DNA of 64,000 nt, from positions 1 through 64,000 of IMG/VR virus record IMGVR_UViG_3300021426_000095. One strand, written 5' to 3'. Within the stretch, counting starts at the first letter, position 1. Every line of letters begins with the position of its first letter. Of this stretch, positions 2,764 to 51,418 are shown piece after piece. The notes below the pieces were generated by a model. That model ran no database searches, was not told where the DNA came from, and worked only from the letters and a program-made list of their open reading frames with translations. Source of the stretch: a virus. The translations under genes and the position numbers were made by a program.

Positions 2764-2840
2764 ATCCGTGTCGTATAATTGGAAGTATAGCTTGACTCCA
2801 AATCAAGAAGGCGTCTGTTCGATTCGGACTGCGGGTGCCA
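2764..2840 (+). tRNA. tRNA-Trp (CCA), canonical type I
   Basis: acceptor atccgtg/tgcgggt with G-U pairs + g + CCA 2838-2840; anticodon arm cttga-ctCCAaa-tcaag; T-arm gtctg-ttcgatt-cggac. Confidence 0.7.
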
Positions 2841-23106: not shown

Positions 23107-23150
23107 AAATTGCCTATAGACCTGCGAGTACGACAGAAATTGCCTATACG
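23107..23150 (+). repeat. direct repeat GAAATTGCCTATA(g/c) x2
   Basis: gaaaaattgcctatagacc ... gaaattgcctatacgat. Confidence 0.4.
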
Positions 23151-23239
23151 ATTTTTGATACAGGCGTGCGGGCGAGCACGGCCGAGCTGCCTTATAAGCG
23201 CGTATAATGGTACATTTGTACGTTTGTTGCTTGCGCGGT

Positions 23240-23300
23240 AATTGTGGAGATTTTGTAGATTAGTTTTGGGATTTTTGTGGATTAGTTGTGGAGATTTTGT
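23240..23300. repeat. inverted-orientation DnaA-box-like repeats (TGTGGAGAT, TGTGGATTA, TTGTGGAGA) interleaved with TTTTGTAGATTAG repeats
   Basis: attgtggagattttgtagattagttttgggatttttgtggattagttgtggagattttgtgtagatta. Confidence 0.45.
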
Positions 23301-23339
23301 GTAGATTAAAAATTTCCCTTGACTACGTGGTATAATTTC

Positions 23340-23362
23340 GCTAGAATGCGCCGCATTCTAGC
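23340..23362. repeat. flank-conserved palindrome family, copy 1 (arms gctagaatgcg / cgcattctagc)
   Basis: aatTTCG-arm-c-arm-CGCTGAAAgg. Confidence 0.5.
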
Positions 23363-23380
23363 GCTGAAAGGTTTGGGCAA

Positions 23381-23409
23381 AAGAAAAACCCCGCCATTAC
23401 TGGGCGGGG
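23381..23409 (-). terminator. rho-independent terminator for 23441..23806
   Basis: minus strand: ccccgcc-cagtaat-ggcgggg + tttttctttt. Confidence 0.6.
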
Positions 23410-23440
23410 TTCTCGCCATTACTGGGCGATTAGGTGAGGA

Positions 23441-23806
23441 TTACACCAGCTTGTAGCCGACATAACGCCCCTTCACCTTTTCCACTTTCTCCACTTTACC
23501 AGCGGAGATAAGCACAGCCATGACTTTGGTGCATTTCTGCGAAGTCATAATCCCGTTTACGTGTTCCATAATCCACGAGGTCAGAACAGGCTCACCCTCG
23601 GGCATGACTTTAAGCACTTCGCCAGCCAAACGAATGTTCTCTTTGGCTGCCTTAGACGGCTCATTCGACTTTTCGCGGGGCTTAGTGATGCTTGCCAGCA
23701 TCTTGGCTGCGACCTCACGGGCGTCCTCACGGGCGAGGGTTTCATAATCGCCATTCACAACAGCAGTCAGGACTTCAGCGCGGGTGATGGTGGTGTTCTT
23801 AGCCAT
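23441..23806 (-). CDS. small winged-helix DNA-binding protein (paralog family)
   Basis: C-terminal LTSWIMEHVNGIMTSQKCTKVMAVLISAGKVEKVEKVKGRYVGYKLV is nearly identical to the C-terminus of 26375..26779; RBS aaaggag. Confidence 0.55.
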   Translation of the reverse strand: MAKNTTITRAEVLTAVVNGDYETLAREDAREVAAKMLASITKPREKSNEPSKAAKENIRLAGEVLKVMPEGEPVLTSWIMEHVNGIMTSQKCTKVMAVLISAGKVEKVEKVKGRYVGYKLV

Positions 23807-24075
23807 AATCAGGCTCCTTTCGGTTGCGGGTGAGATTCCGTTTTTTCTCTCCCTCTGACAGTTAATATATTACCAAATCTTAGTGCTGGGGTCAAGTAGA
23901 ATTTTGTCTTCATAAAGTCTCCATAATTCAGGATTTAAAACAAGCGTCTGACCTGCGGTTTTGGTGATCAATTTTTCCCATGCCGGCACAAAGGCAAATT
24001 CGCTTGATTCCGCCGGAATCAAGCGCTCAAACGTTTTAAAGAACAAAAAACCCGCCTGTTTTGGCGGGTTTTTGT

Positions 24076-24774
24076 TTAAAATTGCTCAAATCGCTTTGAA
24101 ATTTCGCGCCAATGCGGATTGTGCATGCAAATTTTAACAAAATCTGAATCAAACTTGCGCTTGCGGCGAATAATTGCTGCGAAAATGTAAGATTCTATCT
24201 CACAGTCTGCCCGTGCGGTGTGCTTTTCTTCAAAATCTGTATCATTTGTGAGGTAGCGATACACAGCTTCCGCACCTGTTTGCGGATGGCCTTTTGCGGT
24301 GGTCAAATTATGCTCAGCACAGAATTTTAGATAATTACGGCTATTGCAAAGGACGGAGAGAGCCATCGCCCAAATGTCCATAAATTTTACATCACCCTTA
24401 AAGAACTGGTCATAACCGAAGTATTGCGCCGTTTTAAGCAGATGAGATACGTCAAATGAAGCATTGTACGCGCACACGGTAGCGTTAAAAGCTTTGCGGA
24501 CACTGTTAATTGTGCGGCGAATCTCAGCAAACGGCATCACGGTAAAAGCATTTGAACCCTTGTACAGCTCAAAATAGTATTGAGCAATTTTAGTCTTAGT
24601 AAAGCAGTCATGAAACATATCAAGCGTCTCAGGATGGTTCATAAATTCCTCACACACAAAGCTACCCTCGGCAACCAAGTTGCCCTTGCGGTCAATCACC
24701 GTGTAGCCATAGTCAAAAACCAGGTCGTCGCACGTTTCGGTGTCAAGAATCATGAAGAACTTTTTGCTTGCCAT
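24076..24774 (-). CDS. DEDDh-family 3'-5' exonuclease (DnaQ / oligoribonuclease-like), paralog A
   Basis: Exo I ILDTETCD, Exo II YNASFDVSHL, Exo III HTARADCE. Confidence 0.65.
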   Translation of the reverse strand: MASKKFFMILDTETCDDLVFDYGYTVIDRKGNLVAEGSFVCEEFMNHPETLDMFHDCFTKTKIAQYYFELYKGSNAFTVMPFAEIRRTINSVRKAFNATVCAYNASFDVSHLLKTAQYFGYDQFFKGDVKFMDIWAMALSVLCNSRNYLKFCAEHNLTTAKGHPQTGAEAVYRYLTNDTDFEEKHTARADCEIESYIFAAIIRRKRKFDSDFVKICMHNPHWREISKRFEQF

Positions 24775-24804
24775 TTTGTTTCCTTTCTCTCTCTGACAAT
24801 TAGT

Positions 24805-24833
24805 ATATTACAGCATGTGCCGCACACAGTCAA
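24805..24833 (-). promoter_or_regulatory. island-type promoter (minus): TTGACT-N17-TAATAT + conserved ACTAATTGTCAGAGAGAGAAAGGAAACAAA leader
   Basis: -35 at 24833-24828, -10 at 24810-24805; equivalent units precede nearly every minus-strand gene of the island. Confidence 0.55.
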
Positions 24834-24915
24834 GTATTAATTTCAGGATTTTGTCTCTTCATATTTTCTTCACAATTGTTCTTGATCTTTCTCTTGGGGT
24901 GTGCAATGGTAAATT

Positions 24916-24940
24916 CGCTCGTTTGCGCCGCAAACGAGCG
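24916..24940. repeat. flank-conserved palindrome, copy 2 (arms cgctcgtttgcg / cgcaaacgagcg)
   Basis: aaATTCG-arm-c-arm-CGCTGAAAc; perfect 12-bp arms. Confidence 0.55.
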
Positions 24941-25115
24941 CTGAAACAAAAAACTCCCGCGTCCTGTGCGCAACAGGCTGATAGCGGGAGGGAGTCTATT
25001 CTTCGGGCACCTTACCATTCCCTTTTATTTGGCGGGGCTACCGCATTAGTAAACTGTTTAATCACCTCTTTTGGATTGTGGGCGGGGAATTTCACCCCGC
25101 CCTGTTTAGATTGGT

Positions 25116-25436
25116 CTAGAGCTTGTAGACCTTGACCTTTTCGGTCGTGGGAATTTCTTCCCACCCCATCGCCTTACAGATGGCGTTTGCCTTGGGCTTG
25201 GAGACTTCCAGAATCTCAGCCACGTTCGCAGCCTTGAAAGTCTCTTCGTCCCAGACCTCAGCGAACTTTTCACCGAGGGCGATGTTCGCATCACGCTTTG
25301 CCGTGTTAGCCTTGCGGGGACGCGGCTTCGTCACCTGAGCGTACATCTTCTCCAGAACCTCTACTGCTTCAGCATTCTCAACAGCAGCAATCGCGATTTC
25401 CAGAGCTTCCTTGCGGGTCATCTTCTTCTCAGCCAT
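25116..25436 (-). CDS. small winged-helix-like protein (paralog family)
   Basis: MAEKKMT...KPRPRK... resembles 21260..21628; its terminator ctcccgc...gcgggag + T6 lies at about 24955-25000 on the minus strand. Confidence 0.5.
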   Translation of the reverse strand: MAEKKMTRKEALEIAIAAVENAEAVEVLEKMYAQVTKPRPRKANTAKRDANIALGEKFAEVWDEETFKAANVAEILEVSKPKANAICKAMGWEEIPTTEKVKVYKL

Positions 25437-25611
25437 GTCACTTTCCTTTCTTTCGTGGGGAGTTTCTTTCTTTTTTCCTCTCCCCTCCTGACACTTAGTA
25501 TATTACACTACCCATACCCAAGAGTCAAGCATTAATTTCAGGATTCTTGCGGCTTCACAATTCCTTCACATTTGCGATGATCTTTTTGACTGGTGCGTGA
25601 TAAGGTAATTT

Positions 25612-25638
25612 CGCGTCATTTCCTCCGAAAATGACGCG
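25612..25638. repeat. flank-conserved palindrome, copy 3 (arms cgcgtcattt / aaatgacgcg, 6-nt centre)
   Basis: taATTTCG-cgtcattt-cctccg-aaaatgacgcg-gcc. Confidence 0.45.
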
Positions 25639-25700
25639 GCCATCAGAGTCAATTAAACTATTTTTAATTAAAAAATAAATGGGGCTATTGCCCCATTTAT

Positions 25701-26159
25701 TTACCACCTAGCATTAAGCCATTTACGAGTTTCTTTGTCATGAATTTTTACCGTTAGCTTTTTGTGATGTGAAATCCTCCAATCTTTGAACAGTGCAGGC
25801 TCTTCAATGGTATCAAAACCATTAGCTTTAATAATGACCTTTTTTACATCAACCCTCTCAAATAGTCCGACTTCATGAATAGCTACGACTTTGTACTTTT
25901 TGCCGTTAACCCTAATAAACTTTGGAACTACAATCGTTTTTGCGTGATGCTTAATTTTAGTCAGTGCGCAGATTTTACCAGTATACAGTGCATAATGATT
26001 GCCGTCTTTGTATTTTACAATTTGTGTAGCATTCGGTGGCAAATTAATATTTGCGGCGGTTAATTGTGATGCATGAGCCGTTGCGGGGAAAATAATCAAC
26101 GTGGCAAATAACATCAGGATGAACATCGAAATGAAATTACGATTATTAGAAGTGGTCAT
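25701..26159 (-). CDS. secreted or lipoprotein-like protein with signal peptide
   Basis: ATG 26159 after agaaaggga RBS; MTTSNNRNFISMFILMLFATLIIFPATAHA|SQ looks like a signal sequence. Confidence 0.5.
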   Translation of the reverse strand: MTTSNNRNFISMFILMLFATLIIFPATAHASQLTAANINLPPNATQIVKYKDGNHYALYTGKICALTKIKHHAKTIVVPKFIRVNGKKYKVVAIHEVGLFERVDVKKVIIKANGFDTIEEPALFKDWRISHHKKLTVKIHDKETRKWLNARW

Positions 26160-26295
26160 TTTGTTCCCTTTCTCTCTGTCCTTTTGACAAATACATAATA
26201 TCATATTCGTAGCTTAAATATTTCAGGATGTGACTTCCGCACATAATCTCCACATTTAGTTTTGATTTTTTCTCTTGGGTGTTACATAGTAATTT

Positions 26296-26321
26296 CGTTG
26301 GATTGCGCCCGCAATCCAACG
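26296..26321. repeat. flank-conserved palindrome, copy 4 (arms cgttggattgcg / cgcaatccaacg)
   Basis: aATTTCG-arm-cc-arm-CGCTGAAAgg. Confidence 0.55.
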
Positions 26322-26374
26322 CTGAAAGGAAAAGCCCCCGCCTTACGGCGAGGGCTAGAAGGGAAGGGGTCAGA

Positions 26375-26779
26375 CTAGACCAGCTCATAACCGACGTAGC
26401 GACCCTTGACCTTTTCTACACGGCGAGCCTTACCCGCGGCAATGAGAACTTCCATCACCTTTGTGCACTTCTGAGAGGTCATAATCCCGTTCACATGCTC
26501 CATAATTTCGGAGGTCAGCACGGGGCGGTCAGAGGGCATCCACTGGAGGACACGTGCGGCAAGCGCCTTGTTTTCCTTTGCGGCACGGCTCTCACCCTTC
26601 GGAGCCGTGGACTTCTTACCAAGCTGGGCGAGATGTGCCTTAGCCTTGTCCACGATTTCCGTGGGAGCATCCGTCTCTTCCAGCGCACGAATGGCAAATT
26701 CCATCATCAGCGCATTCGTAACCAGCGTCTCTTCGCCGTTGAGGGTGATGAAAACACGGGGAGCGTTCTTGGTAGCCAT
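26375..26779 (-). CDS. small winged-helix DNA-binding protein (paralog family)
   Basis: ATG 26779 after agaaagaagg RBS; the C-terminus is nearly identical to that of 23441..23806. Confidence 0.55.
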   Translation of the reverse strand: MATKNAPRVFITLNGEETLVTNALMMEFAIRALEETDAPTEIVDKAKAHLAQLGKKSTAPKGESRAAKENKALAARVLQWMPSDRPVLTSEIMEHVNGIMTSQKCTKVMEVLIAAGKARRVEKVKGRYVGYELV

Positions 26780-27032
26780 AGTGTACCTTCTTTCTGCCTT
26801 GCGGCGGTTCCTTGGGGAGTTCCTTTGCTCTCCCCTCCTGACACTTAGTATATTACTCCTGTCATCTCTCAGAGTCAAGCAAAATCTTTGAGAATTTTTC
26901 TCTCCATATTCTCTTCACAATTGCGGTTGTACCGGCAAACAGGCTTCTGACCTGGGGAAACGGGATCTTTCTGATAAGTTTAAATGTGAGCAATTTGGTT
27001 AATTTTTTCCCTGGTGTGTCTAAAGGGCAATT

Positions 27033-27057
27033 CGGTCGTTTGCGCCGCAAATGACCG
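27033..27057. repeat. flank-conserved palindrome, copy 5 (arms cggtcgtttgcg / cgcaaatgaccg, one G-T)
   Basis: caATTCG-arm-c-arm-CGCTGAAAgc. Confidence 0.5.
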
Positions 27058-27343
27058 CTGAAAGCAAATCGCCCCGCAGGCCTGACACGCAACGGGGCGA
27101 CAAGTATTTTCTTTAGAGGGCGCAGCAGGACGCATCCCCGCACCCTCACACTAGCGACTAGACCGCCGCGCTAGTGTTCTATTTTTTTAAAGTATCCCAA
27201 TAGTGTTTTGCAATATTTGGAGTTCTTTCTTCTTTTGGTAAATCTTTTTCCTCGGGAAGTGGAGAAAGTGCATACCAGATAAAGAGGGCGGGGAAGCCAA
27301 GTACCATAATGTAAGTAAAGATAGTTTGCAACATTTTAATCAC

Positions 27344-27616
27344 CTACCCACAGACCAAAATTGAAATTACCAGTCCAGCCGTGAGAGCAGTCAGACAAGC
27401 GTTTTTAATCTTGTCAGCTGCGGGACGCTCCAAGTAGAAATCACGACCAAGAGCAATCAGGTTTGCGACCAACCAAATGAGCTGTGCGACCAGTGCGAGG
27501 TCAAAGCGAACAAGCACCTGACCGATGATAGTCAAACCCAGACCCAAGAGCTGAAGATTCTCAACCAGCGTTACGTGCTTGCGACTTGCGAGTTTGTTAG
27601 CTTGCTTCTCAGTCAT
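27344..27616 (-). CDS. small membrane protein (2-3 TM)
   Basis: hydrophobic ORF with its own island-type promoter. Confidence 0.45.
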   Translation of the reverse strand: MTEKQANKLASRKHVTLVENLQLLGLGLTIIGQVLVRFDLALVAQLIWLVANLIALGRDFYLERPAADKIKNACLTALTAGLVISILVCG

Positions 27617-27938
27617 CTTAGTTCCTCTCTCTTTGATGATTTCATATTACCACCATTGCGAGATTGTGTCAAGAGATTTTTCAGACTTTTTTTATTGTTT
27701 AGTCTGAGGAAAGCTAAGGCGTGCATCTCTGACTGGTACCAAGGTCAGCCATCGCCACCCGACTGCGCCAAGTCCTAGTGTGCTCGGCTTGTGGTTGATT
27801 TACGCTTACCTCTCTTGACACTTAGTATATTACACTAATAAAGCGGTGTGGTCAAGTGTTAATTTCAGGATTTCTTTATCTTCACAGAATCTTCACAATC
27901 GCGGTTGATCTTTTCTGGCCCGGGTGTAATGGTAAAAT

Positions 27939-27963
27939 CGTGCGCTTGGCCCGCAAGCGCACG
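27939..27963. repeat. flank-conserved palindrome, copy 6 (arms cgtgcgcttg / caagcgcacg, centre gcccg)
   Basis: aaAATCG-arm-gcccg-arm-CCaaacaaaaac. Confidence 0.5.
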
Positions 27964-28013
27964 CCAAACAAAAACGCCCCGAAGGGCGTTTTAGAGAGAA
28001 AGGCCAATCTTGT

Positions 28014-28271
28014 TTAGTGCATGTCTGCCCATTCCTGAGCAGTGGTTTCAGTGGTGAACGGGCCAGCTACCGCGGTGTGATAAGTTTCCCAACCAAACAT
28101 TTCGTCATACACTTTTTCAACTTCTTCTACGAAGTAGGCCGCAGGCCAAACCTTCTTGCCGACTACCCTTGTCGGGTTTGCTGCTTCAACAGCTCCCAGA
28201 TGTTCTTTCATGTACCAATCACACTTGCAACCGAAGTCCCTAGCGTTTTTTTTGATTTCGTAGCGTTTCAT
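28014..28271 (-). CDS. hypothetical small protein
   Basis: ATG 28271 after gaaagagaaaggtaagaag. Confidence 0.45.
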   Translation of the reverse strand: MKRYEIKKNARDFGCKCDWYMKEHLGAVEAANPTRVVGKKVWPAAYFVEEVEKVYDEMFGWETYHTAVAGPFTTETTAQEWADMH

Positions 28272-28357
28272 CTTCTTACCTTTCTCTTTCTTTCTTACAA
28301 GGTAAGTGTACCATGAGGGGCTGACTTTGTCAACCCCTCTACGAAATCTCCACAAAA

Positions 28358-29041
28358 CTACTTCTTGCACTTAAGACGTTCTTTCCAGACGCGCTGACGG
28401 AAAACAGGCGAGCACATAGAAGTTTCAAGCTTTTGCTTGCGCTTAAACACCGCTTGCAAAATTTGTGCTTCAATTTCACAGTCTGATAGCGCGGTATGGT
28501 CTTCCTCAAACGTGGCGTTTTGCACAAGGTAGGAGTAGACGCTTTCAGCGCTGCAAGAAATATTACCCTTTTCAGTGATAAAACCTGAATCAATACACCA
28601 ACGGACATAATTGGAACTATCACAAATAATGTTAAGTGCCATGTTCCACAAGTCCCAAACCTCAGTATCTTCAGTGAAGAACTGCTCACCCATAAGGATT
28701 TTTGCATAATCATTAAGCACTTTTACATCAAATCCCGCATTGTAAGCGACCACAACAGCGTCAAACTTTTCAATGGTTTGAGTTGTGTACCAGTGAATAG
28801 TTTCAAAATCCATAATGGGCGCAGGCTCATTATCAAGATAAAAAGCAGCTTTGTGCTTAGAAAAAGAGTCACGCTTAATCAGATAGCGCAGCGTTTCATT
28901 TTGCATAATCTCAGCGACAAGACCGTTGAAGCGCTCTACGATTTGACCCTGACGGTCAACCAAAATCCAAGCTACGTCATAAGGCACGCGAGCATCTGCA
29001 ACCGTTTCAGTGTCAAGAACCATGTAATACTTCTTAGTCAT
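28358..29041 (-). CDS. DEDDh-family 3'-5' exonuclease, paralog B
   Basis: ATG 29041 after gaaaggaaa RBS; MVLDTETVAD, YNAGFDVKVL, HTALSDCE. Confidence 0.65.
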   Translation of the reverse strand: MTKKYYMVLDTETVADARVPYDVAWILVDRQGQIVERFNGLVAEIMQNETLRYLIKRDSFSKHKAAFYLDNEPAPIMDFETIHWYTTQTIEKFDAVVVAYNAGFDVKVLNDYAKILMGEQFFTEDTEVWDLWNMALNIICDSSNYVRWCIDSGFITEKGNISCSAESVYSYLVQNATFEEDHTALSDCEIEAQILQAVFKRKQKLETSMCSPVFRQRVWKERLKCKK

Positions 29042-29198
29042 TTCAGATTTCCTTTCTCTCTCTGACAAGATACATATTACACTAATGCGGTCATGCGGTC
29101 AACCACTTCACATAATCTCCACATTTCAGGATTGATCTGTCATAGTCCTGTACTAGTAATGCACGATTATTTTTCTCCAAGGCACATAAAGGCAAATT

Positions 29199-29223
29199 CG
29201 CCAGCGTGGGCCGCACGCTGGCG
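29199..29223. repeat. flank-conserved palindrome, copy 7 (arms cgccagcgtg / cacgctggcg)
   Basis: aaATTCG-arm-ggccg-arm-CTGAATG. Confidence 0.5.
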
Positions 29224-29256
29224 CTGAATGAGAAGGAGGGCTTTTGCCCTCCTGTT

Positions 29257-29457
29257 TTAAACTTCAATCTCTGCAAAGAGTTCATCAGTATCAGCATCCC
29301 AGATATCCGCATGACCTCCACCTAGCTCTTCAAGGCCACTTCGCACATCTTCGAGCATTTCTTTTTCAGCAGATGGCGTAGTGTAGGAAATCCAGTAATC
29401 GTGCCAGTGGTCGCATCCGTCTATTCCGTCAAATTCGATATTAAAACATCTAGCCAT
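29257..29457 (-). CDS. hypothetical small acidic protein
   Basis: ORF with RBS gaaaggaaagaaaatg. Confidence 0.45.
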   Translation of the reverse strand: MARCFNIEFDGIDGCDHWHDYWISYTTPSAEKEMLEDVRSGLEELGGGHADIWDADTDELFAEIEV

Positions 29458-29543
29458 TTTCTTTCCTTTCTCTTTACCTTACAGGTAAATTGTATCACAG
29501 AAAATAATAAAAGTGAAGACCCCTCACGGAGTCTTCACATTTT

Positions 29544-29735
29544 CTACACGTAATATTCTTTCCCAGAGGGCGCGACAATCTTAGCAACTTGTACACGGTT
29601 AACATAAACAAACTTTTTAGCTTCATCCATGACTTCAACAATACAAGTTGCTTTGTATTCCCGCACACAGGAGCGACCAATAAAATCTTCATACTTGAGT
29701 TGATAAACAACTTTCTTTGCGACTTTCTTTTTCAT
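29544..29735 (-). CDS. hypothetical small basic protein
   Basis: ORF with RBS agagaaaggagtaacc. Confidence 0.45.
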   Translation of the reverse strand: MKKKVAKKVVYQLKYEDFIGRSCVREYKATCIVEVMDEAKKFVYVNRVQVAKIVAPSGKEYYV

Positions 29736-29768
29736 GGTTACTCCTTTCTCTCTTGGACTACGTCCAGT

Positions 29769-30017
29769 TTACCAGAAGTCTACCACAATGTCAAGGTCAT
29801 TTTTGTCCTTCACATCTTCTCCACAATTGCGGAGTTGCGGCAGAAAATTTTCATCCAATGGCATGGTAATTTCTCCACCGACAAAATCTTCTGAATCGAG
29901 AACAATTTCTGCAGCATCAATACGGCGTTCAATTTCTTGGATTGCATCAGCCATACTATCAGCTTCAATAATAATGCGGCGTGCAAGAGTTTCTTTGTAA
30001 TCAAAAGTAAACTTCAT
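29769..30017 (-). CDS. hypothetical small acidic protein
   Basis: ORF; contains the CTTCACATCTTCTCCACAATTG motif within its coding sequence. Confidence 0.4.
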   Translation of the reverse strand: MKFTFDYKETLARRIIIEADSMADAIQEIERRIDAAEIVLDSEDFVGGEITMPLDENFLPQLRNCGEDVKDKNDLDIVVDFW

Positions 30018-30019
30018 AA

Positions 30020-30163
30020 TTAATTCTCCTGTTCATCTTCTGGTAACTCTTCATCTTCGTACCGATGAGTAAAGATATTTTCAATCTCTCCATTTTTTGT
30101 TTTTTGTTCAAAAAGGTCTTTCGATTTTTGGCTTTCTTCCTGAAGAAAATCAAACAGCGTCAT
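30020..30163 (-). CDS. hypothetical 47-aa acidic peptide
   Basis: ATG 30163 after gagaaaggattaatc; under 60 aa so not in the ORF track. Confidence 0.3.
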   Translation of the reverse strand: MTLFDFLQEESQKSKDLFEQKTKNGEIENIFTHRYEDEELPEDEQEN

Positions 30164-30180
30164 GATTAATCCTTTCTCTC

Positions 30181-30429
30181 TTACAAGAAGAGGATACCAT
30201 AAACACTAAACCAAGTCAAGATAAAAACAGCGATTGCGGCACATCCACACAAAAAAGCCACAATTCGCGCAGGCCAACTCAAAGCGTCATACATGTAGCA
30301 ATGTTCAACCCCTGTGCATGTTTCTACATCGCCAAGATAGGTAAACAGGTAAGCATCAGCCCATGCCCAAACAAAATAACACCCAACAGAGATGGTAATT
30401 GCCGCGCAAATAATAATAATTCCGTTCAT
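30181..30429 (-). CDS. small membrane protein
   Basis: ATG 30429 after aagagaaaggagagaaa; 3 hydrophobic segments. Confidence 0.45.
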   Translation of the reverse strand: MNGIIIICAAITISVGCYFVWAWADAYLFTYLGDVETCTGVEHCYMYDALSWPARIVAFLCGCAAIAVFILTWFSVYGILFL

Positions 30430-30545
30430 TTTCTCTCCTTTCTCTTTTGGATACATAGTATCACACTTAGTTTTAGGATGCAATACTCTTCACAGAATTA
30501 TCACATTCGAGCTAATTTTTTATCTACCTGCAATAGACGTAATTT

Positions 30546-30570
30546 CGCTCGCTTGCGCCGCAAGCGAGCG
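30546..30570. repeat. flank-conserved palindrome, copy 8 (arms cgctcgcttgcg / cgcaagcgagcg)
   Basis: aATTTCG-arm-c-arm-CTGGCAAG. Confidence 0.55.
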
Positions 30571-30595
30571 CTGGCAAGTTCCAGCGCTCTTTTTA

Positions 30596-30709
30596 CTACC
30601 TCTTGGAAATTTCTTCTTGCCAAGCTGCGATTTTGTCTTCATTTAGAAAGAGGGCTATCGCTGCGATGATTGTGAAAATGACGGCGATAATCAAATCAGA
30701 AATCAGCAT
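30596..30709 (-). CDS. 37-aa single-TM peptide
   Basis: ATG 30709 after ggagaaataaa; MLISDLIIAVIFTIIAAIALFL. Confidence 0.35.
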   Translation of the reverse strand: MLISDLIIAVIFTIIAAIALFLNEDKIAAWQEEISKR

Positions 30710-30719
30710 TTTATTTCTC

Positions 30720-30932
30720 CTAAGCTTTGAATTTATTTCCCCAGCCATCAGACAGATACAGCGGCTTGATAGTGTCTTCGCAATTCTCCATAAAGGCGAC
30801 AGCTTTGTCAACTGCTTCTGCAACGCCCAGGCATTTACCGAGGTCAGCTTGACGGGCAATCCACTCGTTTTTGTAGCTGTAGTAAGTCGCATAGTGGAGC
30901 TTGTAGTTGCCAATCCATTCCCGCTTTGCCAT
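30720..30932 (-). CDS. hypothetical small protein
   Basis: ATG 30932 after agagagaaaggaactcag. Confidence 0.45.
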   Translation of the reverse strand: MAKREWIGNYKLHYATYYSYKNEWIARQADLGKCLGVAEAVDKAVAFMENCEDTIKPLYLSDGWGNKFKA

Positions 30933-31074
30933 CTGAGTTCCTTTCTCTCTTTCTGACAAATAAATTGTACCATAAATAATTTTGACCGTCAAGAAAAGTT
31001 TCAGGATTACTTCTCTTCATAATTATTCCACAAGTGCGGAAGATCTTTTTCTCTGGTGCGCTTAAATGTAAAAT

Positions 31075-31099
31075 CGTCCGCTGTGGCCGACAGCGGACG
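31075..31099. repeat. flank-conserved palindrome, copy 9 (arms cgtccgctgt / acagcggacg, centre ggccg)
   Basis: aaAATCG-arm-ggccg-arm-CGGAGCC. Confidence 0.5.
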
Positions 31100-31134
31100 C
31101 GGAGCCTTTTTGACTCCGCGCCCCAAGAGAGAGA

Positions 31135-31341
31135 CTAAAACAGTCTTTCAAGGTCTGCCCAGCTGTAACCAATCGCGGGAGAGAGAATCAAGCGGCCAAT
31201 TCCAATTTGCCATTTAAACTGTTCTTCCGCTTCTTTCTTTGCGGCCAGCAGTTCTTCTTTGGTGTCAAAGAAATCAACATGCTGTTCGTACAAATCAAAA
31301 GTATCTTCGTCTACCCAGTCCCAAACAAGCATGAACTCCAT
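31135..31341 (-). CDS. hypothetical small acidic protein
   Basis: ORF with RBS agagaaaggaaaaatc. Confidence 0.45.
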   Translation of the reverse strand: MEFMLVWDWVDEDTFDLYEQHVDFFDTKEELLAAKKEAEEQFKWQIGIGRLILSPAIGYSWADLERLF

Positions 31342-31383
31342 GATTTTTCCTTTCTCTTAACTGACAAAGTCATTGTACCACAG

Positions 31384-31833
31384 TTAGGCAACACGGTCAA
31401 GCAGATTTTGAAGTTGCTTCATAATATCTTCACAAGCATTAATGGTTTCACCATGCCACGCCGCACGCACTTTTGCATTATCATCTACTAGAATAGAGTC
31501 TTTAATCTTTGCGGTTTGGTGCTTAGGTGTACCATACTTGACACAGTGGAATTCAGTCACGCAGGGAAGATTTTTAGCAATCCAATCTTTCTTAACTCTG
31601 CGAGTAGCTTTGTTAAATTCTTTGCTACCATGCATAGCAGACCACGTAACTACACCGATAACAAATCCAAGGGCTACAAACTCTTCAAGTAGAGCGTTCA
31701 AGTTACCCATGTCATACATAGCTTCGCCGCACGAATAGGCAGTTACGTCCTCAGAATTAAGGCGAGACTCCCAATCAGTTACAGAGTACAGGTCATAAAT
31801 TGTGCCGTCCATGTCAAAATAGATAGCTTGCAT
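31384..31833 (-). CDS. HAD-superfamily 5'(3')-deoxyribonucleotidase-like hydrolase
   Basis: motif I IYFDMDGTI (DxDGT); later ILVDDN. Confidence 0.6.
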   Translation of the reverse strand: MQAIYFDMDGTIYDLYSVTDWESRLNSEDVTAYSCGEAMYDMGNLNALLEEFVALGFVIGVVTWSAMHGSKEFNKATRRVKKDWIAKNLPCVTEFHCVKYGTPKHQTAKIKDSILVDDNAKVRAAWHGETINACEDIMKQLQNLLDRVA

Positions 31834-31962
31834 GTTTCTTCCTCTCTCTTGGTTGATTACATAATAGCATAATACACTATTGGTAGTTACAGGATTGTCT
31901 TACTTCACATAATCTCCACAAGTCCGGCGATCTTTTTACCCTAGTGCGTAAGGTGCTAATTT

Positions 31963-31988
31963 CGTTCGCGCAGGACCGTGCGCGAACG
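31963..31988. repeat. flank-conserved palindrome, copy 10 (arms cgttcgcgca / tgcgcgaacg)
   Basis: taATTTCG-arm-ggaccg-arm-CACGACC. Confidence 0.5.
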
Positions 31989-31998
31989 CACGACCTGT

Positions 31999-32196
31999 TT
32001 AGAAGCCAACTCGCCTAATTACGCGATAGCTACGCTTAGTAGGCCCGAAGATTTCTTCTACTACATCGCCATCCTGCCAGTCGGAGTCAAAGCCCCAGAA
32101 CTCCAAGGCTTCGGCCTCAGTGTTAAACCATGCGTACAGAAACCCGCCTGCGCGAGTGTGTCCGTCTACGTGGAAAATACTCTCAATGGTGGCCAT
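31999..32196 (-). CDS. hypothetical small protein
   Basis: ATG 32196 after agagagggg. Confidence 0.4.
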   Translation of the reverse strand: MATIESIFHVDGHTRAGGFLYAWFNTEAEALEFWGFDSDWQDGDVVEEIFGPTKRSYRVIRRVGF

Positions 32197-32346
32197 GTCA
32201 GCCCCTCTCTCTTCTCTCTTAACCTTACAAATACATAATACCATAGAGTGAGATATTTGTCAACTAATAGTTACAGGATAGAACTATCTTCACATAATCT
32301 ACATAATGCTGCCGGGTTTTTCTTGTAGTGCGTGTAAGCGATAATT

Positions 32347-34431: not shown

Positions 34432-35643
34432 ATGCCAGAAAGAATTGTTTGTACACAATGCGGCAGGGAAAAAGCAGAAAAAGAATTCTTCATGATGAAA
34501 ACTCATGAACGTTATCCAGTTTGTAAAACCTGTCTTACTATGTATATAGATAATACAGATCCATCTACATTTAAATGGATTCTTGAAAAATTTGATGTGC
34601 CCTATATTGAGCGAGATTGAAAAGAAGAAGCTCAAAATGCTTATGATAAAAATCCCGCAAATTTCTCAGGAGCTTCAGTCATTGGTCGTTATTTGCGGCG
34701 TATGAATATGACACAGTACCGCAATCTTACCTATGCAGATACAGCACGCTTAGCCGCAGAAGAAGAAAAACGTCAACAAGAAGCAGCCGCACGAGTAAGT
34801 TTAGCTAGTGAAGATGAACAAGAAGAATTTATGAATCTTCAAGCTAAACTTGATGCGGGAGAAATTTCTCAAGCTGAATTTGATACTCTCAATCCTCTTA
34901 TGCGGGGAGTAGAAAGACAGCAAGGCCGTAAATATACGTTTGACCAAGAGCAAATAGGTATAAATGAAGATGATATTCTTGCGGAATTAACCGAAGATGA
35001 AAAGAAAATGCTTGCGACCAAATGAGGTATAGTATATAAACCTTCTGAATGAGTTCATATGGAAGAAACATATACCAAATATGCTAATGAATATGAACTT
35101 AATGTAGACCGCGAACTTACTCTTAAACAAATTTGTAAACTTGAATTAAAGATGGATCAAGCTTTAGATGTTGGTGATACAGGAGCATATAAATCATTGC
35201 AGCAATCATATGATGCTCTTCGCAAATCATCTAAATTTACAGAGGTTCAAAATAAAGAAGGCCAAACACGTTATCTTGACTCTATTGGAGAATTAGTGCA
35301 ATTCTGTGAACGTGAAGGTGGATTAATTGATCAATTACCAGACCCAGACGAGTATCCCAAAGATAAAATAGATTTTACAATTAAAGACATGAAAGCATAT
35401 ATTCGTAATCTTGTAACTAATGAACTTGGTCTTGGTGACTTAATTGAATCATATGTCAAAAAACTTGAAGATGCGGAAAGAGAAAAAGAAAAATCTCTTG
35501 ATGTGGGATTATACACATCTATTGAAGAAGAACTTGCGGACCAGGTAACGCCGCAAGAAGAGATAGAATTCCAAGAGTATCTAGACAATGAAGTAGAGGA
35601 AGAAGCTGCTCGTCTCTTGGAAATGCTTGGTGGTGATGTATAA
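34432..35643 (+). CDS. acidic coiled-coil protein (403 aa) with 2 in-frame TGA
   Basis: track ORFs 34432.., 34693.., 35059.. are all in one frame joined by TGA codons. Confidence 0.5.
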
Positions 35644-37400
35644 TGGCATTAAAGGATTTATTATCAGTATCCAATAATCAAATAAAGGATATTGAAATAT
35701 CTGAAGAGTTGTTGCGGCGAGACCTCGACAAATATCGTGAGCTTATCGCATATTGAAGAATGTATCCAGATAGATTAATTGATTATTATTGTAGCTTAAA
35801 TCCAGATAATAGATTTCACTTATTTTTTTATCAAAGATTGTTTCTTCGTTGTCTTATGCGGCATAAGATAGTTTATGCAACATTTGTTCGTGCTTGGTCT
35901 AAATCTTTTATGTCTGTTATGGGATTAATGCTTAAATGTATTCTTTATCCAGGAGCTAAAGTATTCACTGTTGCGGGCGGTAAAGAACAGTCCGCATCTA
36001 TCGTATCATCTAAAATTGATGAAATATGCACTTTAATTCCAGCTATGGAGCGTGAAATTATATGAGATACACGCGGCAAACGAGCTACAACAAGACAAAC
36101 GAAAGATAGTGTAACTTATTCTTTTAAGAATGGTTCTCAATTATCTAACGTTGCGGCGAGTGAGAAAACTCGTGGCGCGCGTTTTCATAGTGGCCTTATG
36201 GAAGAGTGCGTTGGTATTGATCAAGACATATTAAATGAAGTTATTGTTCCTACAATGAATGTTAATCGTATGGTTAATGGTGAAACTGATCCAAAAGAAC
36301 CATTAAATAAATCTCAAGTATTTATTACTACTGCTGGTTATAAAAATACTTATTCATATGAAAAACTTATTCAAATACTTTGTCAAGCTGTTGCACGTCC
36401 AAAAGAAGCAATAGTATTAGGTGGTTCATGAAGAGTCCCTGTTGTTGAAGGTCTCTTGGATCGTGATTTCGTTACTCAATTGCGGCTTGATGGTACATTT
36501 AATGAAGCTGCTTTTGATCGTGAGTATGAATCTCGTTGAACTGGTGACATTGAATCAGCATTCTTTAGTAGTGAAATATTTGATAAACATAGAGTGCTTA
36601 ATCTTGCGGAATATAAACCTAATGGTCGTATGTCTGCAAAAGGTTATTATTTAATGGGTGTTGACGTTGGACGTTTTGGATGTACTACAGAAGCTTGTAT
36701 ATTTAAAGTTACACCAGCTCCATCAGGAGTACCATTAAAACAATTAGTTAATATTTATACTTTTGAAGCAGAGCATTTTGGTTTACAAGCTATTAAACTT
36801 AAGAAATTATTCAATCAATACAAGTGTCGTGCGGCCGTTATTGACGGAAATGGATTGGGTGCAGGTCTTGTAGACTTTCTCGTTACGGATCAAATTGATC
36901 CAGATACAGATGAGGTACTATATAACTGAGGCGTTATAAATGATGAGGATCGTAAATATAAAAAATTTCAAACACCTGAAACAATTTATGATGCTATGTA
37001 TATTATGAAAGCAAATGCTCAATTAAATACTGAGATGTATGCTTATTGTCAATCACAAATGCGGAATGGTAAAATTAAATTTTTAATTCCTGATAATCTT
37101 GCCAAAGATAAATTAATGCAACAGGCACAAGGGAAGAAGATGTCACCAGAACAGCGTGCGAACTATTTACTTCCTTATGTTCAAACGAATATTCTTAAAG
37201 ATCAAATGCTTAATATGATTGAAGAATCTGAGGGCGCCAATATTATTTTAAAACCCGCAAATAAAAAAATTAAACACGATAAATTTTCTGCTTTAATATA
37301 TGGATTATACTATTGTAAATTAGAAGAAGATAAAGGTAAAAAACGTTCTGGCCGCAATATTTCAGATTTTATGATGTATACAAAACCTATTACACATTAA
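35643..37400 (+). CDS. terminase large subunit, 5 in-frame TGA
   Basis: track ORFs 35760, 36198, 36594, 36996 are co-frame with ATG 35643; ATPase-like N-terminal half (VAGGKEQSAS) and nuclease-like C-terminal half (AAVIDGNGLGAGLVDF); sits upstream of the portal gene. Confidence 0.6.
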
Positions 37401-48909: not shown

Positions 48910-48939
48910 TTGACAAAGTTGTTAAATTCATAGTATAAT
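48910..48939 (+). promoter_or_regulatory. promoter TTGACA-N18-TAgTATAAT
   Basis: -35 48910-48915, -10 48934-48939. Confidence 0.55.
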
Positions 48940-48973: not shown

Positions 48974-49474
48974 ATGAATCTTGAACAAGAAAAAAATAAT
49001 GTCTTTACGCCCCAAGAGACATATGAAATTATATCTACAGCAATTGATATGGCAGATGATGAAGGTTTTGTAAATAGCTATGTGTTTGAACGTGCATTAT
49101 ATGTATGTGCCGCACGTGTTATCTATGAAGATAAAAATGAAGAAATTAATACTTCTTTACTAGAGGACGGCTCTCCATTGATTACATGGAAAAAGCTTCT
49201 TGACGATGGTACTATTGATCAAATGAATGCGGAACATTCTGAATCTCTAAATTATCTTGCTTCTCTTGGAGAAACGTGGTTTGAAGAATATACAGAAGCA
49301 GCTCATTCTCTTCGTAGTCTTATTGATGTAATTCAAACATTTACAGACGGAATGGCTGGAAATATTGGAAAACAATTAGATATGTTTAAACAGGATGCTG
49401 ATGTTCAAAATGTAATTGACATTGCAGATAAATGGGGTCTTGATAGAAACGGTCAATCTTTGTTTGGAGAATAA
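48974..49474 (+). CDS. hypothetical acidic protein
   Basis: RBS aaaggagttaac. Confidence 0.45.
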   Translation: MNLEQEKNNVFTPQETYEIISTAIDMADDEGFVNSYVFERALYVCAARVIYEDKNEEINTSLLEDGSPLITWKKLLDDGTIDQMNAEHSESLNYLASLGETWFEEYTEAAHSLRSLIDVIQTFTDGMAGNIGKQLDMFKQDADVQNVIDIADKWGLDRNGQSLFGE

Positions 49475-49499: not shown

Positions 49500-49529
49500 T
49501 TGACAAATGCTGTTAATTCATGGTATAAT
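49500..49529 (+). promoter_or_regulatory. promoter TTGACA-N18-TGgTATAAT upstream of the suppressor tRNA and lysis genes
   Basis: -35 49500-49505, -10 49524-49529, leader gaaaggaggaaaa. Confidence 0.55.
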
Positions 49530-49551: not shown

Positions 49552-49725
49552 TTGATTATAGCTGAATGTAATTTAAATCAATTAATTAATTTAGAATCAA
49601 TATTATTTGCGGCTGAGTGAGATAATAATCCACATATTCCTTCTTTTAATATTAAATGTGATAATGAATTATATAACTATAAAGTTATTAAAGCTTTTGG
49701 GAAATATAGAATTGTTACAAATTAA
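49552..49725 (+). CDS. possible 57-aa protein (TTG start, 1 TGA)
   Basis: TTG 49552 after aaaggagga (short spacer); TAA 49723; weak. Confidence 0.25.
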
Positions 49726-49728: not shown

Positions 49729-49825
49729 ACCCCTCTCGCCTATCGGTATGGCCTCGGTCTTCAAAACCGAAAGTGGGCTGTGTCCAAAGCAGTCTTGCGG
49801 GGTTCGACTCCTCGGAGGGGTGCCA
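49729..49825 (+). tRNA. opal-suppressor tRNA (anticodon TCA, reads UGA), type II with long variable arm, G73, CCA encoded
   Basis: acceptor acccctc/gaggggt + g + CCA 49823-49825; D-arm gcc-tatcggtat-ggc (close to tRNA-Ser); anticodon arm tcggt-ctTCAaa-accga; 27-nt variable arm with ggctg/cagtc stem; T-arm cgggg-ttcgact-cctcg. Confidence 0.7.
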
Positions 49826-49863
49826 TACATATAGTCATTGTTTTAAGCAATGTTAAGATATAA

Positions 49864-49899
49864 AGGTTTACTAGTTTGACTAGTAAACCTTTTCTATTT
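49864..49899 (+). terminator. hairpin + T-run after the tRNA
   Basis: aggtttactagt-ttg-actagtaaacct + tttctattt. Confidence 0.45.
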
Positions 49900-49914: not shown

Positions 49915-50394
49915 ATGGAAGAAAGTACTCCAAAACATGAGATGCAAGAAAATATAAGAGGGACTATTAAAATATCAGATTTTCGTCCTAAAAATCTTCA
50001 TCCAAAAGCAAAAATGCGTGTATTACTATCTATTTTAGGAACATTTTTAATTATATTTGGATGTTTCTATATGCTTTCAATGACGCCTTTTTATTTTGAA
50101 CTAAATTTAGATACTTCAATTGGATTATCTAATTTCTTCTCTGATGCAGTATTTTTTAGTTATATTATTGGAAGTATTCTTGTAATTTTTATTTTATGAT
50201 ATGTAATGATTAAAGATTGTCCAATTTCTCCTGCTGCAAAAGCTAATTATGAAGCTTCACATGATAAATCTATAAAAGGTGTTAAAGTTGTTGCTGCACT
50301 TGCTTTTGCTATAGCTAATAAAGGAACAGGTGATAGTATTGAATCTATAGCGACTGCTGTTGATGATTATTTTACTGTTGAAGAAGAAAAATAA
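49915..50394 (+). CDS. holin-like membrane protein, 1 TGA
   Basis: ATG 49915 after aaggaggtaatttat; 2-3 TM; track ORFs 49876 and 50206 are co-frame via TGA 50197. Confidence 0.5.
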
Positions 50395-50413: not shown

Positions 50414-51418
50414 ATGGCTAATATTGCGAATGTTGCTGCACAAATTCATGCAAATATGTGTAATGATTCAGGATTTGGTTATTCTTGAGGCGAACGTTAT
50501 GGTACGTGAAATGATCCTGTAACATGGAATATTGAAGGTCAAAACTATACTATCGCTCGTGGAGATTATGATTGTAGTTCTTCTGTCTGTACGGCTTGGC
50601 AAACAGCTCTTAAAGGAACTTCTTATGAAGGAGCTTTAGATGGTGCGACATATACTGGAAATATGCGTTCGGTCTTTGTTAATTCTGGGTTATTTGATGT
50701 TTGGGATACTAATTCTACCTCTGCTGTCCGTGGTGATGTTTATCTAAATGATAATAAGCACACCGCAATGTGTCAAGATGGCGGTAATGATGGTGTATAT
50801 GGATATGATGCTTTATCAGAATTCTGCATCAATGAATTTGGTGAAGTGTATGGCGGACAACGTGGTGATCAAACTGGCGGTGAATCCCACATTACAGGAT
50901 ACTATAACTATCCTTGGAGCTGCAGTTTACACTATAACGGAAAAGCTGACACAACTAAACGCCAAGATGACAACCGTAGACATAATGTTATTATGTGGCA
51001 TTCTCATGGTAAAAAGAATCAGCGTTGGCAGCTAGAAAAGAAAGCCGAAGGCTTATACGCTATTAGAAATAAAGCTGATGGATATTATCTTGATGTTAGC
51101 GGAAAAGAAGATAAAGATGGCGCAGAAGTTATTCTTTGGTCTGAGTATAACGGCGGTAAAAACCAACTTTGGAAATTAGATCCAGTAGAAGGGAAGAAAG
51201 GCTGTTATTTCATTGTATCTGCAATGAATGGTGCTCGTGTTCTTGATGTTGTTTCAGAATCTCAAGATGAAGGCGCAACACTTTGCATTTATAAACGGAA
51301 GACAAAGAACACCGCAAATCAAGAATGGTATTTCTTAAAGAATAATGATAATACTAAAACAATTATCAACAATGGTAAAGGACCTAAGATGGCACTTGAT
51401 GCATCTGGTCAAGCTTAA
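50414..51418 (+). CDS. endolysin: N-terminal cysteine-peptidase/amidase-like domain + C-terminal ricin-type (QxW)3 beta-trefoil, 2 TGA
   Basis: ATG 50414 co-frame with track ORF 50663; NQRWQL, NQLWKL, NQEWYF repeats; Cys in DCSSSVCTAWQ; TGAs at 50486 and 50510. Confidence 0.55.

Follow-up and report, generated by a model that had tools for sequence, protein, structure and literature searches.

Structure of the tRNA gene

The sequence analysed here is a stretch of 64,000 nucleotides (nt) of a viral genome (positions 1 to 64,000 of the IMG/VR record IMGVR_UViG_3300021426_000095), hereafter called the window, and the present work concerns a transfer RNA (tRNA) gene with a UCA anticodon that lies at 49729-49825 on its + strand, close to putative lysis genes (Table 1). 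Among the 11 tRNAs that ARAGORN finds in the window, this is the only one with the anticodon tca, and it is because of the anticodon alone that the program labels it 'SeC' (selenocysteine, Sec). A local search with the Rfam tRNA model RF00005 gave 40.5 bits, against a gathering score of 29, and identifies the gene as a tRNA; when the whole window was scanned with the Rfam fast filters, the gene was missed.

The minimum-free-energy fold is a cloverleaf with five arms: acceptor (7 base pairs, bp), D (3 bp), anticodon (5 bp, arm 1), extra (7 bp, arm 2) and T (5 bp). Reading of the sequence gives a D stem GCC/GGC of 3 bp with a 9-nt loop and a variable region of 27 nt (49771-49797), in which arm 2 pairs 49775-49781 with 49789-49795, preceded by the linker AAGT (49771-49774) and followed by TG (49796-49797). 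The loop of arm 2, GUCCAAA, is a copy, CCA included, of the anticodon loop CUCCAAA of the phage's own tRNA for tryptophan (Trp), and its CCA triplet, which we call the pseudo-anticodon, is found at 49784-49786. The initial annotation of this DNA had already described a single UCA tRNA of 97 nt, with a type-II layout, a 27-nt variable region, a 3-bp D stem with a 9-nt loop, G73 and an encoded CCA, which coexists with a canonical tRNA-Trp(CCA) and lacks both the 8-bp acceptor stem and the 6-bp D stem that mark tRNA-Sec; ARAGORN, the fold and direct reading bear out this description in full. It had missed the GUCCAAA loop of arm 2 and the D arm, which is of the type of the glutamine tRNA (tRNA-Gln) and not of the serine tRNA (tRNA-Ser). 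Removal of either arm as an intron was considered and rejected: the gene has no bulge-helix-bulge motif, and the introns of bacterial tRNA genes belong to group I and are hundreds of nt long.

Table 1. Position of the tRNA(UCA), its parts, the related tRNA-Trp and the adjacent features in the window
Feature	Position	Strand	Description
tRNA(UCA)	49729..49825	+	Opal suppressor with two anticodon-type arms, 97 nt; ARAGORN, Rfam tRNA model, cloverleaf fold
Acceptor stem, 5' strand	49729..49735	+	ACCCCTC, paired with GAGGGGT at 49815-49821; A1:U72, C2:G71, C3:G70, C4:G69
Arm 1, decoding anticodon arm	49754..49770	+	TCGGT-CTTCAAA-ACCGA; UCA at 49761-49763
Arm 2, putative pseudo-anticodon arm in variable-arm position	49775..49795	+	Stem GGGCTGT/GCAGTCT, 7 bp; loop GTCCAAA, 7 nt
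T arm and 3' end	49798..49825	+	T arm CGGGG-TTCGACT-CCTCG, acceptor 3' strand, G73 (49822), encoded CCA (49823-49825)
tRNA-Trp(CCA) of the same phage	2764..2840	+	Type I; anticodon loop CUCCAAA, A1:U72, G73; model copied by arm 2
Putative promoter, sigma-70 type	49500..49529	+	TTGACA-18 nt-TATAAT with TG extension; 12/12 consensus; would drive the small open reading frame and the tRNA
Small open reading frame (ORF)	49552..49725	+	57 codons; strong ribosome-binding site AAAGGAGG; one TGA at codon 23 (49618-49620); ends 3 nt before the tRNA
Intrinsic terminator	49862..49892	+	Strong; stem of 14 bp, loop of 3 nt, T tract; separates the tRNA from the gene that follows; annotated feature to 49900; kept in the relative L106
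Putative holin	49915..50394	+	159 amino acids, two hydrophobic segments, one TGA, own ribosome-binding site; assigned by position and hydrophobicity
Endolysin	50414..51418	+	ELLD endolysin-like and ricin-type lectin domains (Pfam PF25309, PF14200, PF00652); two TGA

Meaning of TGA in the phage

When TGA is treated as a sense codon, the coverage of the window by ORFs of at least 100 amino acids (aa) rises from 0.62 to 0.78. About 46 in-frame TGA codons were counted in likely genes, in line with the figure of about 45 given initially, and they are clustered in the late genes of the + strand (33.3-51.4 kb) and in a single gene that spans 19.1-20.6 kb, all of them with little TGG; the early and replication genes use mostly TGG. 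The likely genes without in-frame TGA all stop at TAA or TAG, and the ORFs that stop at TGA under genetic code 11 are either late genes that this code interrupts or ORFs that are short, overlapping or antisense.

The residues that correspond to TGA in homologous proteins are mostly Trp. In the 585-aa protein encoded at 35643-37400, which we take as the large terminase from its size and from gene order (Pfam and PHROGs do not name it), the five TGA sites, at residues 38, 141, 263, 299 and 429, face Trp in 117 to 120 of 120 homologues. The same residues are encoded by TGG in the relative L001, which has no in-frame TGA, and for this reason the alignment of TGA with Trp is not circular. When ten late genes were compared with L001 and L002, which use the standard code, 22 of 27 TGA sites were found to be TGG-encoded Trp in both; the five others face Phe, Tyr/His, Leu, Tyr and Leu, and none faces Ser, Cys, Gly or Arg. 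TGA is therefore Trp in this phage, and the question of the inserted amino acid, which the initial annotation had left open, is largely answered by these sites and by a tRNA of the same lineage that is active as a UGA suppressor (see below). As in phages recoded to genetic code 4 (TGA to Trp), TGA stands at conserved Trp positions, is not needed as a stop and is accompanied by a suppressor tRNA. Selenocysteine insertion would involve rare UGA codons at Sec or Cys positions and does not fit so many TGA in ordinary late genes, mostly at conserved Trp.

Two regions of the window are recorded here for their coding properties. The + strand at 19083-20636 encodes a 517-aa protein rich in Cys and His, without a Pfam match, that has 11 TGA, many of them in a repeated C..C(G)...H.W-like motif. 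The region 20800-32300 (11.5 kb) has a guanine and cytosine (GC) content of 0.42-0.46, against about 0.32 elsewhere, and its ORFs are all short and overlapping; reassigning any one stop codon does not open up long ORFs in it, and relatives have many small minus-strand genes at the equivalent place.

A family of two-armed tRNA(UCA) in IMG/VR

A first scan with the anticodon arm of the window tRNA led to a long tRNA(UCA) in the locus L007 with the same loop on a different, compensating stem. The scan of IMG/VR from which the family is described was anchored only in arm 1 (GTCTTCAAAAC) and in the T loop (GGGTTCGA), with type-II spacing, and was blind to the loop of the extra arm. It gave 104 stretches, with 80 loci returned and 86 distinct sequences; the family counts rest on these and, the anchor motifs being fixed, the proportions hold for tRNAs with those motifs.

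Apart from a few matches that are not tRNAs, the 86 sequences fall into two main classes. The first class contains 23 canonical tRNA-Sec, with an 8-bp acceptor stem, a 6-bp D stem and diverse loops, in none of which UCCA occurs. The second contains 54 tRNAs with a 7/5 fold (7-bp acceptor, 5-bp T stem) and G73, and 53 of them have UCCA in the extra arm, in a loop of the form N-U-C-C-A-A-A (GUCCAAA 22 times, CUCCAAA 16 times, UUCCAAC and other variants); U72 is found in 52 and A1 in 43 of the 54. The window tRNA belongs to this second class by its 7/5 fold, its U72-G73, the UCA in arm 1 and the stem that closes an N-UCCA-A-A loop. Thirty-six distinct arm-2 stems occur in the class. In an alignment of 49 distinct arms over a 5-bp stem, 90.2% of the cells are paired, all five pairs include double changes and the covariation score is 1.011, compared with 0.226 for shuffles (0/500 reach the observed score) and at most 0.214 for slid partners. 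The family sequences are related, so that the counts are not counts of independent events, and the variety of stems and bodies is still large. Since the same anchors with type-I spacing returned only 42 stretches, with mixed acceptor ends, the two-armed form is at least as common as the plain form in this collection. The presence of a family member also goes with recoding: under code 4, long-ORF coverage rises by 0.10 or more in 29 of 44 family loci and in none of 15 tRNA-Sec loci.

The bodies that carry arm 2 are diverse. When the anticodon arm is masked, phage tRNA-Trp(CCA) is the nearest match for 32 of 53 family cores, and the type-I tRNA-Trp(CCA) genes of the same phage loci have the loop CUCCAAA. 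In these tRNA-Trp-like members, arm 2, the 3-4-nt linker and the T arm resemble the anticodon arm, the variable loop and the T arm of a type-I tRNA-Trp, a layout that an internal duplication of the anticodon arm would give. The D arms of the other members have a 6-bp stem, are of type II or are of the tRNA-Gln type, as in the window tRNA. The members nearest to the latter are those of L034 (83/97 identical) and L016 (68/97, ungapped), which have its body with different arm-2 stems. L106, to which the phage is most closely related (proteins 80-90% identical, genes in the same order), has a quite different tRNA body at the same site, with a 6-bp D stem and the arm-2 loop CUCCACA. On the sequences compared, arm 2 and its loop are what is kept across changing bodies, the family has several origins and the two-armed design is widespread in phages.

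Most matches in a scan of bacterial genomes with the tRNA pattern were true tRNA-Sec, from Caulobacteraceae and further bacteria of high GC, in which TCCAA occurs by coincidence; only five were family members, all on low-GC, phage-looking contigs of metagenome-assembled genomes (MAGs). The numbers of variable-arm loops with GUCCAAAAG in true 8/5 tRNA-Sec of several high-GC lineages (bacterial contigs L139-L173, e.g. Caulobacteraceae MAGs) seem to fit chance and shared ancestry. We also observed that the T loop AGCGUUA (T arm GGAGG-AGCGUUA-CCUUC) is present in two tRNAs of the window, at 672-742 and at about 72-160 (+), both missed by ARAGORN: one is a tRNA-Ile(GAU), found by Rfam, and the sequence at 72-160 has a fold like that of tRNA-Tyr(GUA) and was reported by neither tool. 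The same T loop occurs in a two-armed tRNA(UCA) of L025, near 1054-1084.

Read-through activity of family members

The supplementary table of a preprint (bioRxiv 10.1101/2025.10.30.685624) gives the sequences and read-through signals of 213 phage suppressor tRNAs, assayed in an E. coli extract to which no synthetase was added. This library contains members of the two-armed family; the window tRNA is absent from the table and is 70% identical to its tRNAUCA-20. All 13 tRNA(UCA) of the table that have a long arm with a UCCA loop gave 26,699-58,947 relative fluorescence units (RFU) on the UGA reporter, for which the control without tRNA gave 5,403 and wild-type sfGFP 69,124. Only 2 of the 18 other tRNA(UCA) were active (Fisher p = 5e-7; medians of 48,745 for the two-armed and 6,144 for the others), a gap that is correlative, since these tRNAs differ in other respects too. 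Several of the assayed molecules correspond to genes discussed here: tRNAUCA-20, identical to the tRNA of L016 and of the window's body type, reached 33% of wild type, tRNAUCA-26, identical at 94 of 97 positions to the tRNA of L106, reached 68%, and tRNAUCA-3 is identical to the tRNA of L063.

As to the amino acid inserted, the text of the preprint reports Trp, from intact masses in ESI-MS (mass spectrometry with electrospray ionization), for all 13 tRNA(UCA) analysed, which it calls 'representative non-orthogonal tRNAs' and whose members are unlisted there. Since 15 tRNA(UCA) are active and two of these are of type I, at least 11 two-armed tRNAs would insert Trp, assuming that the 13 came from the active ones. 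A term search of the main text returned no mention of the extra arm or its loop.

Extra arms with other anticodon loops

The same table (bioRxiv 10.1101/2025.10.30.685624) contains long amber suppressors (tRNACUA-14, -31, -41, -51, -56, -135, -139, -147, -148 and -155) whose extra-arm loops, CUCUGAA, UUCUGAG, CUCUGAC or CUUUGAA, are anticodon loops of tRNA-Gln. Nine of the ten gave strong UAG signals (46,048-66,665 RFU), and tRNACUA-155 gave 10,163. We also noted tRNACUA-44, in which the Trp-type loop GUCCAAA accompanies a CUA anticodon.

A comparable arrangement was found in a tRNA for isoleucine (Ile), a tRNA-Ile(UAU) of 91 nt in L014 (11311-11401) that has seven homologues (in L126-L130, L132 and L135, e.g. 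L126 near 6731-6777). In all eight, an extra-arm stem of 3-4 bp closes the loop (C/U)AGAU(A/U)A, that is, the Ile anticodon GAU in a 7-nt loop, and the stem shows compensatory changes (CGA/UCG, CAA/UUG, CGC/GCG, GCGG/CCGC). These long tRNAs seemingly follow the same pseudo-anticodon design for the decoding of AUA. The extra arms thus carry the standard anticodon of the intended amino acid in the Trp, Gln and Ile cases alike, which argues for a pseudo-anticodon and against a mimic of the CCA end or a chance motif. The glutaminyl-tRNA synthetase (GlnRS) reads the anticodon, and that of E. coli requires U35-G36. The synthetases for Trp and Ile also read the anticodon, according to a review. On balance, we lean towards a general class of phage tRNAs in which one arm would decode UGA, UAG or AUA and a second arm would show the host synthetase CCA (Trp), CUG or UUG (Gln) or GAU (Ile). 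Such a class, if it is real, would be a natural uncoupling of aminoacylation identity from decoding and would account for the ability of suppressor tRNAs to remain good substrates of unmodified host enzymes while the code switches.

Identity elements and charging of the tRNA(UCA)

In the same review, bacterial Trp identity is made up of the discriminator G73, the first pair A1-U72 and a C34-C35-A36 anticodon, to which the tryptophanyl-tRNA synthetase (TrpRS) of B. subtilis adds a preference for G2-C71, G3-C70 and G4-C69. The review further reports that most bacterial tRNA-Ser have G1-C72 and G2-C71 as absolutely conserved pairs, that C2-G71 is an antideterminant against the seryl-tRNA synthetase (SerRS), which ignores the anticodon, and that G73 is an antideterminant against the leucyl- and tyrosyl-tRNA synthetases (LeuRS and TyrRS). 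The window tRNA has G73 (49822) and A1-U72 (A 49729 with T 49821); its decoding anticodon is UCA instead of C34-C35-A36, and CCA sits in the 7-nt loop of arm 2, with U before it and AA after it. With A1:U72, C2:G71 and G73, the acceptor end argues against Ser, Leu and Tyr and for Trp.

The initial annotation had considered this tRNA closest to tRNA-Ser. This was wrong, because a phage tRNA-Gln(UUG) (L126, 6923-6998) shares with it the D arm (UC-GCC-...-GGC) and acceptor pairs 1 to 4. G1-C72 and G2-C71 are found in the tRNA-Ser(GCU) that the phage itself encodes (6085-6178), whose variable arm has, by sequence reading, linkers of 1 nt; the arm 2 of the tRNA(UCA) is unlike that arm, with linkers of 4 and 2 nt and a 7-nt loop that is that of a tRNA-Trp anticodon arm. 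Compared with bacterial tRNA-Ser and tRNA-Sec in general, the window tRNA shares the long extra arm and G73 with both, and the UCA anticodon with tRNA-Sec; it differs from them in A1:U72, C2:G71, the 7/5 fold, the 3-bp D stem of tRNA-Gln type, the anticodon-like loop and the longer linkers, and it serves Trp positions. Of the determinants proposed initially for inspection, C11:G24 is present, which suits a Ser reading, and G2:C71 is absent.

We consider it likely that the gene encodes a Trp-inserting opal suppressor in which arm 2 keeps the recognition by TrpRS while UCA decodes UGA. Arm 1 would decode UGA on the ribosome, and arm 2 would supply an element like C34-C35-A36 to the host TrpRS, jointly with A1:U72 and G73; the identity for charging would thereby be uncoupled from decoding. 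Since recognition by bacterial TrpRS depends on G73, on pair 1:72 and on the anticodon CCA, such a molecule could be a good TrpRS substrate despite its changed anticodon. The recognition could take place in two ways. Arm 2 might dock into the anticodon-binding domain of TrpRS, the tRNA keeping its type-II shape, a version that we find plausible; or the junction might restack, so that arm 2 with its short linker would take the position of the anticodon arm during charging, as in a type-I tRNA.

Several observations weigh against this explanation or against parts of it. The variable arm leaves the tRNA core at an angle unlike that of the anticodon arm. The pairs preferred by the B. subtilis TrpRS are replaced by C2:G71, C3:G70 and C4:G69 (C3:G70 and C4:G69 are likewise found in the phage's own tRNA-Trp(CCA)), and the body as a whole resembles phage tRNA-Gln and not tRNA-Trp. 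Activity of the two type-I tRNA(UCA), which are the two exceptions in the read-through data, indicates that the arm is not strictly required, the activity gap is correlative, and the assayed molecules are relatives of the window tRNA (one 70% identical with the same body, one close to the tRNA at the same site in L106) and not the window tRNA itself. At the level of codons, the TGA of the small ORF aligns to Ser (TCC) in the 42%-identical homologue of L016, and the two TGA of the endolysin are at variable, non-Trp positions (Q and A/K in relatives). As the latter are variable and the holin TGA remains TGA in L106, L034 and L016, the sites in the lysis genes are uninformative. Finally, the window is part of a genome, and a further UCA tRNA or a TrpRS of the phage may lie in the remainder; in four relatives of the tRNA array, the sequence upstream of the window start showed only a tRNA-Thr and no second tRNA(UCA).

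The most serious alternative keeps Trp as the inserted amino acid and makes G73 and A1:U72 alone responsible for charging, arm 2 being no determinant for TrpRS. The loop may then recruit an enzyme that modifies anticodon loops, tune the behaviour at the ribosome or with EF-Tu against release factor 2, act as a decoy for an anticodon nuclease of the host, mimic the 3' CCA end or be a relic of anticodon-arm duplication. The two type-I tRNA(UCA) that work without the arm fit this alternative, as does the tryptophanylation of opal suppressors in E. coli (bioRxiv 10.1101/2021.08.26.457843), and the contact of TrpRS with arm 2 is one that we infer. Against it stands the contrast between the 13 of 13 tRNAs active with the arm and the 2 of 18 without. 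A relic, moreover, would not keep U-C-C-A invariant across 36 stems and several unrelated bodies, and a CCA-end mimic leaves unexplained the Gln (CUG/UUG) and Ile (GAU) loops at the same position; the mimic is disfavoured by these parallels. Overall, we regard a passive arm 2 as rather unlikely.

The other alternatives change the amino acid. Charging by GlnRS, with TGA read as Gln, would agree with the tRNA-Gln-like D arm and acceptor pairs and with one endolysin TGA that aligns to Gln in three relatives; neither loop, however, has the U35-G36 that GlnRS requires, and the conserved Trp sites oppose it. Use of either arm on the ribosome, so that both UGA and UGG would be read, meets the difficulty that the phage tRNA-Trp(CCA) already serves UGG, and we hold both of these possibilities to be very unlikely. 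The initial annotation had offered charging by SerRS or unusual identity elements, and it is the second part that is supported. A SerRS that ignores the anticodon could act through the long extra arm, G73 and C11:G24, and the Ser that faces the TGA of the small ORF in L016 would suit TGA read as Ser. None of the 27 late-gene sites is Ser, however, the tRNA-Ser pairs at 1:72 and 2:71 are absent and replaced at 2:71 by the antideterminant, the linkers are longer than the single nt of the phage tRNA-Ser(GCU), and the 13 tRNA(UCA) given ESI-MS all inserted Trp (bioRxiv 10.1101/2025.10.30.685624); TGA as Ser is most improbable. The selenocysteine tRNA suggested by the ARAGORN label has on its side the UCA anticodon, the long extra arm and G73, and against it the 7/5 fold rather than 8/5, the D stem of 3 bp with a 9-nt loop rather than 6 bp with a 4-nt loop, the separate class that true tRNA-Sec form in the same scan, without UCCA loops, and the many TGA at Trp positions of ordinary structural genes, which leave this reading practically no chance.

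Comparison with known systems

TGA-to-Trp phages and their suppressor tRNAs are already known, and so is an engineered pseudo-anticodon in the variable arm (V-arm). The phage studied here resembles the code-4 phages of Borges et al. (bioRxiv 10.1101/2021.08.26.457843) in being a low-GC gut phage with TGA as Trp and presumably a standard-code host, and in having TGA concentrated in genes for structure and lysis; the suppressor tRNA adjoins the lysis cassette, as it does in the 'code change module' of their Jade phages. It differs in having no TrpRS or release factor 1 (RF1) gene beside the tRNA and a small conserved ORF instead. The tRNA architecture is undescribed in that work, in which phage tRNAs are said to be possibly non-canonical and hard to detect. 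ARAGORN labels genes such as ours tRNA-Sec, and the finding of suppressors in only about 35% of code-4 phages may partly reflect misses by the Rfam fast filters, as happened here.

The engineered V-arm is also a hairpin at the variable position that mimics an anticodon arm, designed to recruit the anticodon-binding domain of a synthetase and so to raise the aminoacylation of a suppressor tRNA. It is synthetic, built on an allo-tRNA chassis with a histidyl-tRNA synthetase (HisRS) fused to an extra anticodon-binding domain, and has a modest effect. The phage tRNAs, in contrast, are natural and would use the unmodified host enzyme, and no natural case is cited in the passages of that paper found by term search. 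Hairpins that copy a cognate anticodon loop and are read by a synthetase are also known from the E. coli thrS operator and from viral tRNA-like structures; these are located in mRNA or at the 3' ends of viral RNA and serve regulation or replication, whereas in the phage tRNA the mimic lies inside a decoding tRNA, beside a different functional anticodon. Full-text literature searches, in which subscription journals are thinly covered, found no natural second or pseudo-anticodon arm in phage suppressors.

Recoded phages raise the question of how a suppressor is charged correctly in a standard-code host when TrpRS and GlnRS read the anticodon that has been changed. If our explanation is true, a simple answer would be that the tRNA carries its own copy of the loop of the original anticodon. 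Such a copy would also provide a natural tRNA with a synthetase-facing 'anticodon' separate from the ribosome-facing one, of which we found only engineered versions described, and the two-armed design would be a portable module for genetic-code expansion.

The tRNA module and the lysis genes

The promoter that the initial annotation had placed at 49500 is confirmed as a complete match to the sigma-70 consensus with an extended -10 element, and L106 keeps a similar one (TTGACG ... TGATAAAAT). Because this promoter has the consensus of host-type promoters, expression of the tRNA independently of late phage factors is suggested. In L106 and L016, and not elsewhere, the tRNA is likewise directly preceded by the small ORF, which is 89% identical in L106, where the TGA is retained, and 42% identical in L016; the ORF may be co-transcribed with the suppressor tRNA. 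PHROGs gave no match for the small ORF or for the two genes upstream, and neither Pfam nor PHROGs gave one for the putative holin. A second sigma-70 promoter with a 12/12 consensus was observed in the window at 48910-48939 (+), upstream of a gene for a 166-aa protein (48974-49474).

The holin and the endolysin do contain in-frame TGA, one and two respectively, as had been noted initially, and a lysis-timing switch had been proposed on the basis of the place of the tRNA. The position next to the lysis genes is shared by the window, L106 and L034; in L016, the module lies about 5 kb away in the opposite orientation. The module has a promoter and a terminator of its own, and TGA also occurs in terminase, portal and tail genes, being spread over all late genes and not confined to the lysis genes. 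A delay of lysis and late proteins by recoding is a model already published for TGA-recoded phages (bioRxiv 10.1101/2021.08.26.457843), and the present observations add no specific support for a lysis-only switch.

Genome context

The full-length homologues of the terminase are located on contigs of about 110-147 kb, where the neighbouring genes belong to Pfam families that take their names from the SPbeta proteins YonG, YonD, YonB, YomW and YomU. The minus strand of the window encodes an anaerobic ribonucleotide reductase, a large DNA polymerase and a RecJ-like nuclease, and a tRNA array occupies positions 1-6178. The gene content of the window and of the homologue contigs points to a large SPbeta-related phage from an anaerobic habitat, probably the gut. 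Pfam matches were obtained for 3 of 8 late proteins. A megablast search of the region 33.3-52 kb against GenBank phages returned only a 144-bp match to an unannotated faecal phage, and a search of bacterial genomes with the terminase returned no relative.

Two further observations concern the tRNA array. At 5393-5465 (+), the window contains a tRNA-like gene (Rfam, 37.3 bits) whose 'anticodon arm' is a 5-bp stem with a GCAA tetraloop and has no anticodon; the gene is kept with the same arm in L003 and L006, and L004 yields the same ARAGORN call. In the relatives L003 and L005, the segment 3645-8023, upstream of the counterpart of the window's tRNA array, carries beside the array two RNA ligase genes, with the Pfam families RNA_ligase and RNA_lig_T4_1, and one Zeta_toxin/AAA_33 kinase-like gene, which together look like a tRNA repair module.

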